From sequence record PP174317.1: 64,000 nucleotides of DNA; one strand, given 5' to 3'. A program made the translations under genes and the position numbers. Below, one piece after another: positions 53,427-60,456 of this stretch. The notes below the pieces were generated by a model. That model was given only the letters and a program-made list of their open reading frames with translations. It searched no databases and had not been told where the DNA came from. Position 1 is the first letter of the stretch. Each line of letters starts with the position of its first letter. The DNA comes from Acinetobacter phage vB_AbaSt_W16.

Positions 53427-53535
53427 GACGACTTCCTATAAAAAGAGTTGTATAAAATTCAATAAATGGCCAGACTAACACGCCAATGCCTGTTAGTCCG
53501 AGTGTTACTGCAACATATATTTCAATAATACTCAT
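53416..53535 (-). CDS. Micro-ORF (~39 aa, hydrophobic) overlapping the rIIA stop (TAATG) and the rIIB start. Coordinates are approximate.
   Basis: Hand-translated: MSIIEIYVAVTLGLTGIGVLVWPFIEFYTTLFIG... It is below the track cutoff. Confidence 0.3.
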   Translation of the reverse strand: MSIIEIYVAVTLGLTGIGVLVWPFIEFYTTLFIGSRHAK

Positions 53536-56111: not shown

Positions 56112-56438
56112 TTACATTGCAAGTAAAGTTACAGTAGCTTTACCATTTTCAAATTTAGATACTTCCATAATGAACTGTTCGCCGATGATTGATTTACATT
56201 CATATAAACCTTCACCTTTACGGATGTAGTTTACATTCCAGAATGCAATCATTGTATCATATTCTTCTTTAGAAGTTACATTAATTACAAAAGTAGACAT
56301 ACCTTTCTTATTAAAAACTTTCCAATCAATCTCACCAATTTTACCTTCCATTTTGTTTAAAGTGAAAGATACATCAGAAAGAATAATGTTAGTCATTTTA
56401 ATTTGAAAACGTTCTGCTTTTTTAGTTAATGTAGCCAT
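56112..56438 (-). CDS. Hypothetical protein.
   Basis: 108-aa ORF. Confidence 0.45.
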   Translation of the reverse strand: MATLTKKAERFQIKMTNIILSDVSFTLNKMEGKIGEIDWKVFNKKGMSTFVINVTSKEEYDTMIAFWNVNYIRKGEGLYECKSIIGEQFIMEVSKFENGKATVTLLAM

Positions 56439-56518
56439 GATAATTTACTCAGTGTTTGTTCATTTGATGTAGTTATTATATAAGAATTTAATAAGCATGT
56501 AAACCCTTTAAATGAAAA

Positions 56519-56547
56519 AAGGTGCAAATAATGCACCTTTTTATTAA
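56519..56547. terminator. Hairpin aaaaaggtgcaaataatgcaccttttt.
   Basis: Inverted repeat with T-run between the 209-aa and 108-aa genes. Confidence 0.6.
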
Positions 56548-57173
56548 AGTTTTAAAATAGTACCATATAAACGACGAACATATGTACGATAATCAACAAG
56601 AGTCTCTTCATCGACATAATATTGCGGAACATTTAACCAGTGTTCAGCACCCATATTATCAACAATATAAGGCACATTGAGTTGGTAATCATATTTGATA
56701 TTATGAACATATCGACGACGTTGGCCGTCTGTATAGTCTACAAGGATTTCAGCGCCAAGTAAAAATTTACAATCTCTAAAATATGGTGTTAGTTCAGGTC
56801 GTTCATATCTTTCATGTAAAACTACTTTTGCATTTACACCTTTTAAAACTAACATTTGACGACCATCATGTGGGTGTTCATCTACATAATAAGATTCGAG
56901 CCAACGATGTTCATTTGTAAATTCATCACCAAAAATTAAATCCAACCAAGTTGTACCTGGGTTAAGTTTAACATTTGCACGAACGTTTACCGTAATAATA
57001 TCAGTAAGATTATATTTATAATCAAGTTCAAAAATTTGGCCGTCTTTATAATTATCTAAACGCATCCAACCCAAACCTACAATATTAAGTAGTGCAATAT
57101 GAGTAAACTTTTCTGGGTTATAAACACCTGCATCCAAAATCAATTCACGTAAAGTATTCATATTAATCCTCAT
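56544..57173 (-). CDS. Hypothetical protein, the last gene of the ATP-grasp operon.
   Basis: 209-aa ORF. Confidence 0.5.
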   Translation of the reverse strand: MRINMNTLRELILDAGVYNPEKFTHIALLNIVGLGWMRLDNYKDGQIFELDYKYNLTDIITVNVRANVKLNPGTTWLDLIFGDEFTNEHRWLESYYVDEHPHDGRQMLVLKGVNAKVVLHERYERPELTPYFRDCKFLLGAEILVDYTDGQRRRYVHNIKYDYQLNVPYIVDNMGAEHWLNVPQYYVDEETLVDYRTYVRRLYGTILKL

Positions 57174-57284
57174 TTAAATGCTTTTTAAACTTTTCTTTTC
57201 TGTCATATTTTGACTTGTCTTTTACAACCTGCATCTTAAATGCAGGTGTTCTAACAGCTTTTGCAACTGGATTACGTTTATTTC

Positions 57285-57524
57285 TCATTTCTTCTCCTTG
57301 TATGATTGATACAATCGATATGGCGTCATGAGACCAATAAGTAAATAAATTAGTAGATATACTAATGAAGAAAATAGCAATCCTATAACTGGCATTTGAC
57401 CAATAAAATCGGTTTTGTTTGGACCGAATTTATGATCATGATGACCTTCATTAACGTATCGATTCCAACTAAATGTACCTTTCAAATTTGTCTTAACAAT
57501 TTTAATTAACTTTTTCATTTCCAT
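57285..57524 (-). CDS. Small protein with a C-terminal transmembrane helix (tail-anchored-like). Its start overlaps the end of the ATP-grasp gene.
   Basis: 79 aa with a hydrophobic C-terminus (VIGLLFSSLVYLLIYLLIGLM). It overlaps the upstream gene by 10 nt. Confidence 0.45.
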   Translation of the reverse strand: MEMKKLIKIVKTNLKGTFSWNRYVNEGHHDHKFGPNKTDFIGQMPVIGLLFSSLVYLLIYLLIGLMTPYRLYQSYKEKK

Positions 57525-58783
57525 AACTCCAAATATTTGGTTTCTAAATCTTCTGGCACAAAGAAATGGCTTGCAAAAAATGCGTCCATACCTGTGACAA
57601 GATTTCGATCTTCACGAATAGACATACCACATGCTTTGTCACCAATAATCCATGAGCCAATGATCGGATAATATCCATCGTGCGGTTGAATTTCATGCCA
57701 TTGTTGGTACATATAGCCCCAATGATCATATTCAGGTACTTTGTGAGAACCCGGAGCCAAATGACTAAGCTCTTCGCCAGAACAAAAATGCGAACGATAG
57801 ATGTTTGAACCTTCGCGGCCATGAATTGCTTTCTTAGCATATTGACCCGATTTTGGATGATGATTCCCATCAAAACTCGCCAATAAATTAGGGTGATTAG
57901 GGAACATTTCCCATAACTTAATAAGCATTGCTTTGTTTGAAAGCAGCATTTTCCATGCGGGTTCCATCCAACGAGTGTTAGTACAGTCAAGAATGTCAGA
58001 ACCAAATTTCTCTTCAGTCATCCATTCCCAAGGATAAAGTTTAAAACAATTTTTGATCTCTTGGTCTTGAAGATCGATAAACGATTTAGTTTCAGGGCCT
58101 GTGCCAATACGTTCTTTCAAAAGACCAATATCTTGCATTTGCAATTCTTTAACAGATAAACCAGCACGAAGTGCAGAATCCATCAAATAAACTAAATTAC
58201 CAAAGTCTTCATGACGGAATCCACCGCTTGATGCAAAATGAACTAATTCGCCTGGTTTAAATCGTTCCTGCCAAACTTCTTGAAGAGTTTCATCAATAAG
58301 ATTATATTGAATACGCAGATCATCTGGATAATCACGACCGTCTGGTAATTTTTGCATACTTTCAATATAATTCCATTGTGCTACAGAACATTCAAGAATT
58401 GAAACTGGAGTGTCGCCATTATACTCAAACATTTTTAATGAGTCATCAGAGCCAAAAGCAAGATCGAAACGTCCATATAATGATTTATCACCACGATTCC
58501 AAGATTGTTCAATTAAAGGAATCGAATTTTCATCCAAATTGAAGTACTCAGGATAATCACCAGATTTGATCATTTGTTCTACCATTGCATAAGACATATC
58601 GTGTAAGTCTTGTGATGCAGCTTGAATACGGTCAATTTCACTTTCTGACATTCCATATACAACGCCTTCTTGCCAATATGGTGCAGCATCAGGTCCAGAA
58701 GGGGCATTCCAATAATTGAAGCCAATTCCCTCTAAAAGTTCAATGTGATTAGGACGGATTTCGAAATTGCTATGGCGTTTCAT
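57515..58783 (-). CDS. Glutathionylspermidine-synthetase-like ATP-grasp amidoligase. It is a standalone synthetase domain of the YgiC/YjfC family with no amidase domain.
   Basis: Collinear with the E. coli YgiC/Gsp synthetase domain. Matching segments include LQDQEIKNCFKLYPWEWM, EPAWKMLLSNKAMLIKLWEMFPNHPNLL, KKAIHGREGSN, IIGSWIIGDKACGMSIRED. Confidence 0.85.
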   Translation of the reverse strand: MKRHSNFEIRPNHIELLEGIGFNYWNAPSGPDAAPYWQEGVVYGMSESEIDRIQAASQDLHDMSYAMVEQMIKSGDYPEYFNLDENSIPLIEQSWNRGDKSLYGRFDLAFGSDDSLKMFEYNGDTPVSILECSVAQWNYIESMQKLPDGRDYPDDLRIQYNLIDETLQEVWQERFKPGELVHFASSGGFRHEDFGNLVYLMDSALRAGLSVKELQMQDIGLLKERIGTGPETKSFIDLQDQEIKNCFKLYPWEWMTEEKFGSDILDCTNTRWMEPAWKMLLSNKAMLIKLWEMFPNHPNLLASFDGNHHPKSGQYAKKAIHGREGSNIYRSHFCSGEELSHLAPGSHKVPEYDHWGYMYQQWHEIQPHDGYYPIIGSWIIGDKACGMSIREDRNLVTGMDAFFASHFFVPEDLETKYLELWK

Positions 58784-58845
58784 ACTTTACTCATTTTTTA
58801 AAGATTTCAGAAATTTTACACTAATAATAAAAACATGTAAACATT

Positions 58846-59130
58846 TTATCTAAATTTAGTGTATTCACATCGATGTTGTGGGATTTTCATATAACGATCG
58901 GCTAATGTTAAATTAACATATGTACCATCGGAATACCATGTAATAGAACTATCATTACCTGTATACGTGACAATCGAATCACCCGAAAGTGATAAACACT
59001 TAAGCGTAACTGTACCGGCAGGTGTATATTCTTGATTTGCTTTTGGGTGTTGCATTACAAAAATACTTAATGCAATAATAATTCCAATAATTAAACAGAA
59101 TATCATTTGACCATTATTTAATTTATTCAT
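58846..59130 (-). CDS. Small membrane-anchored or secreted protein with an N-terminal transmembrane segment and two Cys in the periplasmic part.
   Basis: 94 aa. A hydrophobic N-terminal segment (MIFCLIIGIIIALSIFVM) is followed by a soluble domain. Confidence 0.5.
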   Translation of the reverse strand: MNKLNNGQMIFCLIIGIIIALSIFVMQHPKANQEYTPAGTVTLKCLSLSGDSIVTYTGNDSSITWYSDGTYVNLTLADRYMKIPQHRCEYTKFR

Positions 59131-59135
59131 AAAAA

Positions 59136-59157
59136 CTCCAAAGGGCCGAAGCCCTTA
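59136..59157. terminator. Hairpin aaagggccgaagccctt between the lipoprotein gene and the 94-aa gene. It may be an attenuator.
   Basis: Inverted repeat, seen directly. Confidence 0.45.
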
Positions 59158-59161
59158 ATTA

Positions 59162-59683
59162 TTAACCACCTGAAGATACTGCACCACCGAAACCACCACG
59201 AGAAGTTGACGTACTACGAGACACTGCAGCGGCTTTAGTTGAAACCGCACGTGATTCGGTTGCTCGATATGAATTTAACGTGTTTCGAGCCGGCGGAACA
59301 TATGCACTTGATCCCATTGCTTGTTGACGAGATTTAAATGAATTATATGACCCATTAGACATCATATTGCCGAGCATCATGCCCATTGCGCCAGCCATCA
59401 TCATATCCATGCCACTAAATCCTGAATTTGATGCAGCTTGTGTTGCGGCGGCAGGATCAGTTTTATGCAATTCAAGTAATTTTACCCAATCTTCGTATGT
59501 GCCGGTATAACCTTTAGCTTTGGCCTCTTCATATGATTTGCTTAAAGTATCAGCGACTTGAACAAATGCACCTTCAGGAGTTTGCGCTACATTTGATGCA
59601 ACAGCAACAGAATCATCTTTGGCACAGCCTGCTAATACAAAGGCAGGTACCATCAACATTACAATAGATTTTTTCAGTTTCAT
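59162..59683 (-). CDS. Lipoprotein with a Met/Gly-rich hydrophobic segment and a Ser/Gly-rich C-terminus ending in GG. Its architecture resembles DUF1190 (YgiB/YjfM).
   Basis: Signal peptide plus lipobox (VLAGC), then MDMMMAGAMGMMLGNMM, then the C-terminus TSRGGFGGAVSSGG. From memory, E. coli YgiB has a similar arrangement (LAGC, FWMPLMAGYMMGRLMGGG, C-terminal TRGGFGE...SMGG). Confidence 0.7.
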   Translation of the reverse strand: MKLKKSIVMLMVPAFVLAGCAKDDSVAVASNVAQTPEGAFVQVADTLSKSYEEAKAKGYTGTYEDWVKLLELHKTDPAAATQAASNSGFSGMDMMMAGAMGMMLGNMMSNGSYNSFKSRQQAMGSSAYVPPARNTLNSYRATESRAVSTKAAAVSRSTSTSRGGFGGAVSSGG

Positions 59684-59690
59684 TTTTCAC

Positions 59691-60032
59691 CTAGATATCA
59701 ATAGAAGAGAATTGTGCAATAATAGTCAAACCTACTGAAATGAAGATAAGACCGACCCATGCACCAAGGTCTAAATTTTGATTAAGCATTATTTTTGCAA
59801 GAAATGCAGTAGCAACGGCACCAAGGCCTGACCACATAACATACAATATACCAGCTTGCATATATTTTAATGCGATAACACAAGCAATAAATGATCCAGT
59901 GTATAATATTGCACCAATTATAAGAGGTCCAATATTATTAAAACCGTCTGCCTTTGCCATATAAATGGTTGATATTACATCAGTGGCTATTGCTACCAAT
60001 AGCCACATTACACCTATTTGACTAGATGTCAT
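59691..60032 (-). CDS. Small multidrug resistance (SMR/EmrE-like) four-helix membrane transporter homologue.
   Basis: 113 aa aligning along its full length with EmrE: AxDVISTIYMAKADGF against AEVIGTTLMKFSEGF, YVMWSGLGAV against YAIWSGVGIV, and NQNLDLGAWVGLIFISVGLTII against GQRLDLPAIIGMMLICAGVLII. The conserved TM1 Glu is replaced by Asp. Confidence 0.8.
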   Translation of the reverse strand: MTSSQIGVMWLLVAIATDVISTIYMAKADGFNNIGPLIIGAILYTGSFIACVIALKYMQAGILYVMWSGLGAVATAFLAKIMLNQNLDLGAWVGLIFISVGLTIIAQFSSIDI

Positions 60033-60385
60033 TTGAATTCACCCAAAACATTATATGCCTTTTTAAGCCATTCATCACGAGTCAAATAAGGGCCAATATC
60101 CGATGTAAATAACTTGATGACTTTCCATGTACGTTCAGTATAACGAGAGTATGACCAATCAGCAAATAATCCAATCCCTGATTCATCCATATCTGGTTTT
60201 TTAATACCAAAAATACGACGAATAGTTCGGGATTCAGATACATCACCCCACTCGTCAGTAGACCATCCAAATGTTTTGCCGATAACACATGTTTTATATT
60301 CACCCATACTAAATTCAGTATCTTGAGGTAATTGTTCAACAGCTTCAATAGCACGGATAAGGCCGTTAATTAAATTAACTTTCAT
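60029..60385 (-). CDS. Hypothetical cytoplasmic protein, the first gene of the SMR/lipoprotein operon.
   Basis: 118-aa ORF whose stop overlaps the SMR start (ATGA). Confidence 0.5.
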   Translation of the reverse strand: MKVNLINGLIRAIEAVEQLPQDTEFSMGEYKTCVIGKTFGWSTDEWGDVSESRTIRRIFGIKKPDMDESGIGLFADWSYSRYTERTWKVIKLFTSDIGPYLTRDEWLKKAYNVLGEFK

Positions 60386-60427: not shown

Positions 60428-60456
60428 AAAATCCAGGCTATGTACATAGCCTGGAC
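60428..60456. terminator. Strong rho-independent terminator downstream of rnlB (tccaggctatgtacatagcctgga with T-run on the minus strand).
   Basis: 10-bp perfect stem plus T6. Confidence 0.7.

Follow-up and report, generated by a model that had tools for sequence, protein, structure and literature searches.

A cassette of a YgiC/YjfC-type ligase, a DUF1190-like lipoprotein and an SMR transporter in Acinetobacter phages, with a putative role at the cell envelope

The closest described systems are the bacterial ygiB-ygiC and yjfL-yjfM-yjfC modules, which have been linked to envelope stress; ygiB belongs to the Cpx regulon. As the earlier note, a first reading of the sequence alone, had stated, tolC is co-transcribed with ygiBC (PMC11762307), and PspA operons contain DUF1190 and ligase genes (PMC11237479). 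Work cited in PMC11762307 reports peptide-spermidine ligase activity for YgiC/YjfC and no glutathionylspermidine synthetase activity, and RefSeq product names for proteins of this type agree with the ligase activity. GspS homologues in phages have been noted since 2006 (PMC1524935; PMC9992855; PMC4319498).

Organization of the locus

In this study, we examined a locus in a 64,000-nucleotide stretch of Acinetobacter phage vB_AbaSt_W16 (PP174317.1; here called the window), which is 99.9% identical to Acinetobacter phage ZZ1 (NC_018087.3). The locus genes correspond to ZZ1p0005-0012, and each of them was already annotated in GenBank. The cassette lies in the variable early region adjoining rIIA. 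All seven minus-strand open reading frames (ORFs) of the earlier listing were recovered at their coordinates, and a 41-aa DUF7230 ORF had been overlooked. The following features were identified:

60431-60456, minus strand: hairpin with an 11-bp stem, then TTTTTTATTATT, between rnlB and the 118-aa gene (terminator scan, sequence read)
60029-60385, minus strand: 118-aa gene, ZZ1p0012 (ORF list)
59691-60032, minus strand: SMR transporter, 113 aa (Pfam Multi_Drug_Res)
59162-59683, minus strand: DUF1190/YgiB-like lipoprotein, 173 aa (Pfam by way of orthologues, alignments)
59141-59156, minus strand: GC-rich hairpin with UUCG loop, separating the lipoprotein gene from the 94-aa gene (terminator scan, sequence read)
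58846-59130, minus strand: 94-aa signal-anchor protein (alignment, phrog_20143)
58813-58841, minus strand: promoter-like TTTACA-17-TAAAAT, immediately ahead of the ligase gene (promoter scan, sequence read)
57515-58783, minus strand: ligase, 422 aa (Pfam GSP_synth)
57285-57524, minus strand: 79-aa protein of tail-anchored type (ORF list, locus comparison)
57163-57288, minus strand: 41-aa DUF7230 protein, between the 79-aa and 209-aa genes (Pfam, phrog_2701)
56544-57173, minus strand: 209-aa protein (no family match)
about 56515-56540, minus strand: hairpin AAAGGTGCA-TTATT-TGCACCTTT and T-run, downstream of the 209-aa gene (sequence read)
56475-56503: promoter-like TTTACA-17-TATAAT, beyond the hairpin ending block 2 (promoter scan)

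The genes form two blocks whose limits are hairpins and promoter-like sites. The hairpin with T-run after rnlB (60431-60456) marks the upstream limit of block 1, and the one at about 56515-56540 marks the end of block 2. Of the two hairpin-bounded operons proposed before, the two blocks with their hairpins stand, but the internal hairpin precedes the 94-aa gene rather than following it, so that the operon to which this gene belongs is ambiguous. Its GGAG ribosome-binding site is found in the sequence past the UUCG-loop hairpin, which could act in attenuation or in stabilising the RNA. The TTTACA-17-TAAAAT site resembles a T4-type early promoter, as a consensus match only.

The ligase and its lipoprotein partner

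The 422-aa protein matched Pfam GSP_synth with an E value of 3.7e-107 (359 bits), and the nearest PDB structures were YgiC (7uk8, 1.7e-68) and YjfC (7uk6, 2.9e-55). By homology it belongs to the ATP-grasp acid-amine ligases of YgiC/YjfC (peptide-spermidine ligase) type, as had been suggested, and is a standalone enzyme with neither an amidase domain nor a signal peptide. The equivalents of Gss residues R316, D318, E330, N332, E391, K498, K533, R538 and R598 are all kept, showing a predicted active site that is intact in its catalytic, ATP and Mg residues. Three positions differ from Gss, and YgiC and YjfC differ likewise; we take these positions to be glutathione contacts.

The assignment of the 173-aa lipoprotein to a DUF1190/YgiB-like family likewise held, on sequence grounds and by way of its orthologues: the ZZ1 copy scored 18.2 bits, below the Pfam DUF1190 cut-off of 22, whereas the orthologues of DLP1 and Acj9 reached 23.4 to 27.3 bits and ORF096c of Aeromonas phage 31 reached 76.6 bits. 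Profile alignment with hhalign matched its N-terminal part to YgiB at 95% probability. In the protein, the lipobox LAGC (Cys20) and an acidic N-domain are followed by a segment rich in Met and Gly, a linker that is basic and rich in Ser and Thr, and the C terminus SRGGFGGAVSSGG; it has the lipobox, Met/Gly segment, RGGFG and terminal GG in common with E. coli YgiB and YjfM.

The C terminus, RGGFG-x7-GG, is near-invariant: the final 12 residues include 10 that never vary in an alignment of 14 homologues that are just 39 to 71% identical to the ZZ1 protein. The C-terminal Gly-Gly to which attention had been drawn is present in ZZ1 but in just 26 of 56 viral tail proteins, with GS, GA and SS as alternatives. 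The invariant tail element is RGGFG, located 7 to 14 residues before the C terminus, and not the terminal GG. Most members of the tail-protein family have an N-terminal signal or anchor alone, so the tail should be exported with the protein and end up in another compartment than the ligase, which is cytoplasmic.

Pairing of the two genes, in bacteria and at this locus, had been pointed out earlier. We scanned about 12,700 ORFs at 80 bacterial and 80 viral ligase loci for the tail motif and found an RGG[FYWI]G-tailed ORF within about 5 to 6 kb of the ligase at 73 of the bacterial and 56 of the viral loci. No locus had more than one such ORF; its strand was always that of the ligase, and mostly it lay directly upstream. 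The lipoprotein-ligase pairing is therefore real; it is almost universal among bacteria and frequent among phages, and hundreds of bacteria carry the pair on the chromosome.

Transporter, small neighbors and distribution

The 113-aa protein matched Pfam Multi_Drug_Res (E = 1.7e-13, 51.3 bits), in line with the transporter called earlier, and by its sequence is a divergent four-helix transporter of the SMR family, whose members include the spermidine exporter MdtJI. The NCBIfam Qac/EmrE/MdtI models gave 48 to 54 bits, far short of their cut-offs of 103 to 226; for the Qac and EmrE models the figures were 38 to 54 bits against 160 to 226. In an alignment with EmrE, Tyr40, Tyr60 and Trp63 have retained equivalents, but Glu14 is replaced by Asp18, and Asp is found at this position in every phage and plasmid copy. 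In EmrE, the E14D mutation impairs proton coupling. The GenBank label QacE was rejected in view of the low NCBIfam scores and this Asp. Elsewhere, the usual membrane partner of the pair is a four-helix DUF350 protein (64 of 80 bacterial and 24 of 80 viral loci); it is missing here, and SMR occupies its slot.

The 94-aa protein combines an N-terminal signal anchor with a beta-rich exported domain of ~55 aa and two invariant cysteines, C45 and C88, in the alignment. It is a recurrent cassette partner in Acinetobacter phages and one 381-kb contig, and at one of the ligase loci a weak homologue lies beside SMR, lipoprotein and ligase. Its AF2 single-sequence model had a pLDDT of just 61. The label MliC lysozyme inhibitor, carried by relatives, was unsupported by Pfam or PDB profile search. 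The soluble 118-aa protein (phrog_21305), whose stop overlaps the SMR start (ATGA), occurs only in Acinetobacter T4-like phages; its AF2 model (pLDDT 79) had no PDB fold match at E<1, and its BFVD relatives came from phages only. The 79-aa gene overlaps the ligase stop and encodes one C-terminal hydrophobic helix; it is present in Lazarusvirus relatives and missing from Acj9, Acj61 and Ac42. The very basic 41-aa protein (DUF7230, E = 6e-13, 49 bits; phrog_2701) is encoded next to the ligase in all Acinetobacter T4-like phages examined, including Ac42. The 209-aa ORF exists as listed but has no Pfam or PHROG family match and is confined to ZZ1 and Henu6, which makes it co-transcribed cargo and not the conserved module member it was taken for.

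Searches of 50,697 phage records with the ligase, lipoprotein and SMR showed that the three genes co-occur in 51 to 56 Acinetobacter phage records. The earlier note had stated that T4 has no counterpart between rIIA and rnlB; neither T4 nor any T-even Escherichia phage was among the listed matches to the three proteins, and the Escherichia SMR matches listed came only from 48- to 50-kb phages, one of them named Lambda. The outcomes that the note had said would speak against it were family placement failing, no co-occurrence in related phages and loss of ATP-binding residues; instead, the families were recovered, the genes co-occur and the residues are intact.

Gene order is kept in no fewer than three named genera of phages (Zedzedvirus, Lazarusvirus and Acajnonavirus), in Acj61 and on plasmids, at 60 to 85% identity. 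Acinetobacter megaplasmids carry SMR, lipoprotein and ligase in the order of ZZ1, with 60%, 33% and 64% identity, respectively, and without the 118-aa gene; despite the low identity of the lipoprotein, its 13-residue tail is identical. Since the triad is found on these megaplasmids, the transporter is, contrary to the earlier supposition, not the phage's own addition. Ac42 has the ligase and the 41-aa gene, but in the 5 to 6 kb or so around its ligase there is no gene for SMR, the lipoprotein or the 94-aa protein, and the phage-wide lipoprotein matches do not include Ac42. Conversely, YgiB-like sequences occur in 138 further phage records, the majority from Enterobacterales phages, and the listed organisms have no ligase, so lipoprotein and ligase are separable. 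The dN/dS ratios of ligase (0.03 against the phage DLP1 copy), 94-aa, SMR and lipoprotein genes were 0.03 to 0.12, compared with 0.17 for rnlB and 0.37 for rIIA, showing strong purifying selection on the cassette that exceeds that on either flanking gene.

Proposed function and alternatives

From the gene content, we infer a function in polyamine amidation tied to the envelope. The core would consist of the cytoplasmic YgiC/YjfC-type ligase, the exported DUF1190 lipoprotein and a four-helix inner-membrane protein, with the 94-aa protein as a putative fourth part in Acinetobacter elements that is small, disulfide-bearing, membrane-anchored and exported. The ligase would convert the C-terminal carboxylate of a peptide or protein to an acyl-phosphate and amidate it with a polyamine, in Acinetobacter presumably 1,3-diaminopropane or spermidine; work cited in PMC8458285 names 1,3-diaminopropane as the major polyamine of Acinetobacter. 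The carboxylate could be donated by the conserved tail of the lipoprotein, modified before Sec export, or by a small peptide, in which case the cationic product would reach the lipoprotein by SMR transport through the inner membrane. Points against this reading are the compartment split, the non-universal GG, Ac42, the ligase-free YgiB-like phages, the Asp in SMR and the sub-threshold DUF1190 score.

Alternatively, soluble cytoplasmic peptide- or thiol-polyamine conjugates might store or buffer polyamines for translation and DNA packaging, with SMR exporting the surplus like MdtJI and the lipoprotein not being a substrate. We consider such pool management unlikely. Phages do encode many polyamine enzymes, a gss homologue in Motura clusters with homospermidine synthase (PMC9992855), the MdtI model gives a score on the SMR protein, and Ac42 has its ligase without the lipoprotein. 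However, neither the near-universal RGGFG-tailed, exported neighbor of the ligase nor the invariance of the tail would be explained, nor would the ligase-free organisms listed among the lipoprotein-like phage records, and at the three presumed glutathione contacts the ligase departs from Gss, and so do YgiC and YjfC, neither of which makes glutathionylspermidine. Even less probable is that the ligase places a polyamine on phage DNA or a nucleotide precursor, which we find hardly credible: such a role was once suspected for the gss homologue of PhiW-14, a phage with hypermodified thymine in its DNA and a distant GspS homologue as its sole candidate polyamine-related protein (PMC5977210), but the ZZ1 enzyme is nearest to YgiC, its gene neighbors encode exported or membrane proteins and not nucleotide metabolism, and the pairing also exists in bacterial chromosomes.

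Superinfection exclusion or anti-defence, modeled on T4 Imm and Sp, would have the lipoprotein and the 94-aa protein stop the DNA entry or lysozyme of a second phage, with ligase and SMR as auxiliaries. Early-type promoter-like sites ahead of the ligase gene, membrane-bound or exported products, the lysozyme-inhibitor label and the position beside rIIA are consistent with this, but neither Pfam MliC nor a PDB profile matched the 94-aa protein, no PADLOC model was matched by any cassette protein, and the triad on non-phage megaplasmids together with the pair in bacterial chromosomes argues that the basic function is not phage-specific; we regard exclusion as quite improbable. A passenger cassette, in which SMR is a biocide-resistance (QacE) gene along for the ride without coupling or benefit to the phage, would fit the GenBank label and the occurrence on plasmids, yet it is very unlikely given the Qac/EmrE scores, the replaced Glu14 equivalent, the kept gene order and dN/dS values below those of the flanking core genes.

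The reading that we favor, if only slightly above even confidence, is that the cassette is a mobile, phage-adapted ygiB-ygiC/yjfL-yjfM-yjfC module producing a polyamine-bearing envelope component. This conserved early-gene cassette probably alters the envelope of the infected cell, and the polyamine-bearing component would stabilise or alter that envelope during the latent period.

Gene layout, accessory genes and selection

The region is 99.9% identical to Acinetobacter phage ZZ1 (Straboviridae, Twarogvirinae, Zedzedvirus), and position 1 of the ZZ1 GenBank record corresponds to position 53535 of the window. Between rIIA and rnlB, the cassette (56544-60385, minus strand) encodes, in 5'-to-3' order, a 118-aa protein, an SMR transporter (113 aa), a lipoprotein (173 aa), a 94-aa protein, a ligase (422 aa) and proteins of 79, 41 and 209 aa. 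The ORFs that an earlier note had called from the sequence alone are all present on the minus strand, with their coordinates correct, and correspond to ZZ1p0005-0012; its list had overlooked one basic ORF:

57163-57288, minus strand, very basic 41-aa protein (Pfam DUF7230, E 6e-13; phrog_2701)

GenBank names two genes of the cassette, as 'glutathionylspermidine synthase' and 'quaternary ammonium compound-resistance protein QacE', and the others are 'hypothetical'.

The intergenic sequences, with their hairpins and promoter-like sites, are in broad agreement with the two blocks described in the note. A strong hairpin with a T-run lies 3' of rnlB, a UUCG-loop hairpin separates the lipoprotein gene from the 94-aa gene, a promoter-like TTTACA-17-TAAAAT is found 5' of the ligase gene, and a hairpin with a T-run 3' of the 209-aa gene is followed by a TTTACA-17-TATAAT site. 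Most genes inside each block overlap or almost abut, with ATGA overlaps between the 118-aa and SMR genes and between the 79-aa and 41-aa genes, a 10-nt overlap of the ligase and 79-aa genes and an 11-nt overlap of the 41-aa and 209-aa genes.

The cassette is retained in the phage under selection. Comparison of ZZ1 with DLP1 yielded dN/dS values indicative of purifying selection for the ligase (0.03), the 94-aa protein (0.06), the SMR transporter (0.08) and the lipoprotein (0.12); the flanking genes rnlB and rIIA gave 0.17 and 0.37. In the same comparison, dS was 0.6 to 0.8 for the lipoprotein, 94-aa, ligase and 41-aa genes (window 57163-59683 against the DLP1 locus, L002) and 1.3 to 1.9, roughly double, for the 118-aa, SMR, 79-aa, rnlB and rIIA genes. 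This divergence pattern hints at a more recent recombinational exchange of the stretch between Zedzedvirus and Lazarusvirus.

Among the accessory genes, the 41-aa ORF lies 3' of the ligase gene in every Acinetobacter T4-like phage examined, Ac42 included. Its product may work together with the ligase. The model of the 118-aa protein reached a pLDDT of 79; Foldseek against the PDB returned nothing at E<1, and all its BFVD relatives were from phages. Its BFVD match E5EYW1 was compared with the products of the genes upstream of the Ac42 ligase, Ac42p007 (BLASTP, no alignment) and Ac42p008 (hhalign, 0.1% probability), and both identifications were rejected.

A signal anchor, five predicted strands and two invariant cysteines characterise the 94-aa protein, which is labeled an MliC/PliC lysozyme inhibitor in related phages. 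This label found no support in Pfam or PDB profile searches: Pfam gave a weak Ig_2 match (E 0.034) and nothing else, and a profile of 7 homologues matched no PDB sequence at E<=10. A word-indexed homologue search retrieved one relative, and the AF2 single-sequence model (pLDDT 61) was too weak for a fold search. In Acj61 (locus L095, 5360-5644 and 5648-5926), the gene occurs in two tandem diverged copies, whose products share 39% and 38% identity with the ZZ1 protein. The 209-aa protein is confined to ZZ1 and Henu6. Its gene and a 108-aa gene (window 56112-57173, minus strand) form an insertion relative to DLP1, and neither product matched Pfam, PHROGs, NCBIfam or PADLOC. The PADLOC defence models also gave no match to nine cassette proteins.

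The ligase and the SMR transporter

The 422-aa protein belongs to the Gsp-synthetase-like ATP-grasp family, as the note had proposed. Pfam GSP_synth matched it with 359.2 bits (cut-off, 29.3) over residues 17-407, aligned to positions 5-370 of the profile (length, 371). The nearest solved structures in a PDB search were YgiC (1.7e-68) and YjfC (2.9e-55), to which it is 37% and 34% identical in our ligase alignment (A3). The match to Gss was weaker (1.2e-12) and confined to the C-terminal part, and trypanothione synthetase is, like Gss, far more distant. Gss residues 1-250 have no counterpart in the alignment, leaving a standalone synthetase domain. The ZZ1 ligase shares with E. coli Gss (24% identity) the ATP-grasp synthetase core and the Mg-, ATP- and phosphate-binding residues but lacks the N-terminal CHAP amidase domain.

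The active site is intact, and the ATP-binding residues expected from the first reading are conserved: R105, D107, E120, N122, K284, K318, R323 and R390 are all identical to R316, D318, E330, N332, K498, K533, R538 and R598 of Gss, which we take to be its Mg/ATP/acyl-phosphate residues. E192 is likewise identical to Gss E391, presumably a spermidine contact. The positions of S335, S337 and C338, which we assume to contact glutathione in Gss, are occupied by T, V and S in the ZZ1 ligase and differ in YgiC and YjfC too.

A review (PMC11762307) ascribes to YgiC peptide-spermidine ligase activity and no glutathionylspermidine synthetase activity and calls its physiological substrate unidentified; ATP-dependent polyamine-to-peptide ligation is reported only for E. 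coli YgiC and YjfC. The RefSeq product name of both E. coli proteins is 'peptide--spermidine ligase'. Because YgiC lacks glutathionylspermidine synthetase activity and RefSeq uses this name, the label 'glutathionylspermidine synthase' of the phage gene is probably wrong in detail; unlike Gss, the nearest relatives of its product, YgiC and YjfC, do not make glutathionylspermidine. In one IMG/VR contig (L136, 6001-7242), the ligase frame is seemingly split into a 140-aa ORF and the C-terminal part, with a frameshift or an error of assembly as possible causes.

The 113-aa protein, read as EmrE-like from the start, is a member of the SMR family (Pfam Multi_Drug_Res, 51.3 bits; cut-off, 23.7). It has four helices and the size of about 110 aa, its residues 10-108 align end to end with EmrE 6-104, and the equivalents of EmrE Tyr40, Tyr60 and Trp63 are kept. 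Glu14 of EmrE is essential. In place of this membrane-embedded Glu of helix 1, the ZZ1 protein has Asp18, and all seven related phage and plasmid copies carry Asp at this position, whereas EmrE, MdtI and MdtJ carry Glu. Copies with the exchange include the following:

59691-60032 of the window, minus strand, ZZ1-type SMR gene
5637-5984 of L006 (Acinetobacter megaplasmid NZ_CP039144.1), SMR gene
3725-4108 of L094 (381-kb IMG/VR contig), SMR gene

The ZZ1 protein missed all NCBIfam subfamily cut-offs by a wide margin, with SMR_qac_int as the best match (54.1 bits against 188); the scores for EmrE, MdtI and QacE were 52 (against 162), 48.6 (against 103) and 37.9 (against 185). Its gene is linked to ligase and lipoprotein genes, whereas EmrE, Qac and MdtJI stand alone. 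The assignment as QacE found no support, given scores far under the cut-off and the Glu-to-Asp change. The label 'QacE resistance gene', widespread in A. baumannii phage genomes, is probably an over-annotation, and such an unjustified label bears on safety screening for phage therapy.

The lipoprotein and its linkage to the ligase

The lipoprotein carries the signal peptide and lipobox seen in the first reading (MKLKKSIVMLMVPAFVLAGC, LAGC), and the lipobox Cys is invariant in an alignment with YgiB and YjfM. Also common to the three proteins are a Met/Gly-rich hydrophobic stretch, RGG[FY]G and a terminal Gly-Gly. As to its proposed membership in DUF1190 (Pfam PF06693; gathering score, 22 bits), the ZZ1 copy itself scored 18.2 bits (E 0.0032), somewhat under the cut-off; its orthologues in DLP1 (23.4), the metagenomic relative P0004 (26.8) and Acj9 (27.3) lie above it, and the Aeromonas phage 31 lipoprotein ORF096c reached 76.6 bits. 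The megaplasmid copies described below gave no match to Pfam DUF1190. A profile of the phage lipoprotein family compared better with YgiB than with YjfM, yet partially; with YjfM, the RGGFG tail alone was aligned (3.7% probability). The Cys-rich N-terminal domain of DUF1190 has been called 'metal-chelating' (PMC11237479). ZZ1 and other Acinetobacter-type lipoproteins have no Cys beyond the lipobox, and the N-domain of the ZZ1 protein thus differs from that of YgiB, with its conserved cysteines.

Residues R162-G166 and G172-G173 are invariant in 16 sequences, including YgiB and YjfM, and 10 of the 12 C-terminal residues do not vary among 14 phage and Acinetobacter homologues that are 39 to 71% identical to the ZZ1 lipoprotein (example of a tail peptide, STSTSRGGFGGAVSSGG). 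No other part of the protein is as constrained as the tail. RGGFG is followed by 7 residues in ZZ1 and by about 23 to 25 in enterobacterial YgiB-type proteins. The Gly-Gly ending to which the note had drawn attention is found in ZZ1, YgiB and YjfM, but about half of the viral homologues end in GS, GA or SS.

A bitopic topology, with a second glycine-zipper helix and a cytoplasmic tail, was also considered. In the copies from Acinetobacter plasmids and Aeromonas, the charge pattern is compatible with it, at -8 to -17 ahead of the segment and +8 behind it. As a general solution it was discarded, because a second hydrophobic segment is restricted to 7 of 141 family members and the candidate segment of ZZ1 is under the threshold.

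Through a host homologue of the lipoprotein, two non-mobilizable Acinetobacter megaplasmids came to light (NZ_CP039144.1 and NZ_CP044456.1; 395 and 275 kb), each with an SMR-lipoprotein-ligase triad whose gene order and common strand match those of ZZ1. The proteins are 60% (SMR), 33% (lipoprotein) and 64% (ligase) identical to those of ZZ1, the 13-residue tail of the lipoprotein, SRGGFGGAVSSGG, is identical, and the SMR protein has Asp at the EmrE Glu14 position as well. Unlike the ZZ1 protein, the megaplasmid lipoprotein is longer (245 aa) and has a clearly hydrophobic glycine-zipper segment, and homologues of the 118-, 94-, 79-, 41- and 209-aa proteins are absent from the megaplasmid cassette. 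In L006 (NZ_CP039144.1, 337528-350265), the surrounding genes have no Pfam match, and the triad may lie inside a mobile island, since a tyrosine recombinase gene is located about 2.5 kb upstream. The 381-kb IMG/VR contig carries the SMR-lipoprotein-ligase set together with a weak homologue of the 94-aa protein.

Lipoprotein and ligase were paired well beyond these replicons, in line with the pairing that the note had drawn from bacteria. Ligase searches supplied 80 loci each from bacteria and viruses, with about 12,700 ORFs in all. An ORF with an RGG[FYWI]G tail, the motif lying 7 to 25 residues from the C terminus, was present in 73 bacterial and 56 viral loci, the latter including Ralstonia phage phiRSL1 and Achromobacter phage Motura. 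Each of these loci contained exactly one such ORF, with no further one among the roughly 12,700. Without exception it shared the strand of the ligase gene, and in most cases it was the gene immediately upstream. In ZZ1, both genes lie on one strand with the 94-aa gene in between, and Aeromonas phage 31 has a KGGFG variant of the motif. Using an HMM built for this analysis, we found a DUF350 (YjfL-type) four-helix protein beside the pair in 64 of 80 bacterial and 24 of 80 viral loci and no match among the ZZ1 proteins. The slot of the small membrane protein is filled by the SMR protein in ZZ1, instead of DUF350.

As for co-occurrence in T4-like phages, which the note had suggested surveying, 56 Acinetobacter phage records contain the ligase, 51 the lipoprotein and about 53 to 56 the SMR gene. 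Ac42 is an exception: the ligase and 41-aa genes are kept, but genes for the SMR protein, the lipoprotein and the 94-aa protein are missing from the vicinity of its ligase gene. YgiB-like sequences were detected in 138 further phage records (including a few contaminating bacterial sequences), mostly of Klebsiella, Erwinia, Cronobacter, Serratia and Citrobacter phages; apart from Salmonella, their listed organisms are absent among those of the ligase search. Three ligase-less examples were inspected, and all kept the lipobox, the Met/Gly segment and the RGGFG...GG tail:

1501-2079 of L174, YgiB-like lipoprotein of Citrobacter phage Moon
1501-2070 of L175, YgiB-like lipoprotein of Klebsiella phage KNP2
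1501-2118 of L176, YgiB-like lipoprotein of Erwinia phage Deimos-Minion

As the E. coli chromosome carries ygiC and yjfC, we would expect, by analogy, that the hosts of such phages also supply a ligase.

A probable mobile variant of the ygiBC and yjfLMC modules

The best-supported reading is that the ZZ1 cassette is a mobile variant of the bacterial ygiBC/yjfLMC module. Like ygiB-ygiC and yjfL-yjfM-yjfC of E. coli, it combines a standalone ATP-grasp ligase without amidase domain, a lipoprotein gene upstream on the same strand (in ZZ1 with the 94-aa gene intervening) whose product shares the lipobox, Met/Gly-rich segment, RGGFG and terminal GG, and a small membrane or efflux-related gene alongside. 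It differs in being phage-borne and downstream of early-type promoter-like sites, in its SMR-family membrane partner in place of DUF350 or TolC, in its extra phage-only genes (118, 94, 79 and 41 aa) and in the absence of PspA, YjfI and YjfK neighbours. The literature ties the bacterial module to the envelope: ygiB is dependent on Cpx, an envelope-stress system, tolC and ygiBC share a transcript (PMC11762307), and DUF1190 and the ligase are found together in operons with PspA, an association described in PMC11237479.

Phage homologues of GspS have been noted since 2006 (PMC1524935) and later in PMC5587285 and PMC9992855, and phage Moon was reported to encode a YgiB-like lipoprotein (PMC4319498). 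The GspS-like genes of Aeromonas phages 31, 44RR2.8t and 25, Ralstonia phage phiRSL1 and Achromobacter phage Motura are of the YgiC family (31 to 38% identity to ZZ1 in tblastn), and a DUF1190 or RGGFG-tailed protein is encoded upstream of the ligase in phage 31 (ORF096c), phiRSL1 (ORF051) and Motura. Unlike ZZ1, these phages have no SMR gene, and Motura has a DUF350-like protein; its gss homologue is clustered with homospermidine synthase (PMC9992855). In Aeromonas phages, a Band-7/SPFH lipoprotein lies near the GspS-like gene, the domain having been reported in 44RR2.8t (PMC1524935). In phage 31 (L003, 1190-2998), ORF096c is located two genes downstream of this second lipoprotein, a context that echoes the PspA and Band-7 context of bacterial ligase operons (PMC11237479). 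The individual cassette genes are already annotated, and the kind of system, of which ZZ1 carries a variant, was known beforehand, though functionally uncharacterised. In the literature, we found no description of the SMR-for-DUF350 swap, of a cassette common to Acinetobacter phages and megaplasmids, of a rule for the tail motif that spans phages and bacteria or of the many DUF1190 lipoproteins in phages that have no ligase.

The chemistry would be the amidation of a C-terminal carboxylate with a polyamine; the major polyamine of Acinetobacter is 1,3-diaminopropane. The ligase might cap the conserved tail of the lipoprotein before export, or it might make a small cationic conjugate that the SMR protein would carry to the periplasm, where the lipoprotein would act. 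Capping of the tail is favored by the fixed spacing of RGGFG from the C terminus and by the ligase-less phages that still have the lipoprotein, but export of the tail is predicted for most of the family, and the replacement of Gly-Gly in about half of the viral homologues also argues against it. In its full form, the tail-capping proposal states that the RGGFG-x(7-14)-COOH tail of DUF1190 is the physiological YgiC/YjfC substrate, that its carboxylate receives a polyamine cap before or during export, and that large virulent phages deploy the modified lipoprotein, with their own or the host's ligase, to re-engineer the envelope of the infected cell; we regard this as tentative and, on balance, rather unlikely. 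Such capping would bear a loose resemblance to ubiquitin-like Gly-Gly activation and to the amidation of the glutathione Gly by Gss.

For the natural substrate of YgiC and YjfC, which are conserved enzymes, the comparative data yield one hypothesis, namely, that the invariant tail of the neighbouring protein is the substrate, and point to a small, strongly selected phage cassette as a place to test it. If it is true, the compact Acinetobacter phage cassette and the phages with the lipoprotein but no ligase would be the simplest system for finding the long-sought YgiC/YjfC substrate. The phage records with DUF1190-type sequences number well over 200; T4-like phages of Acinetobacter and Aeromonas are among them, as are phages that infect Klebsiella, Erwinia, Cronobacter, Serratia and Citrobacter, and the breadth of this family points to an unrecognised phage action on the Gram-negative envelope.
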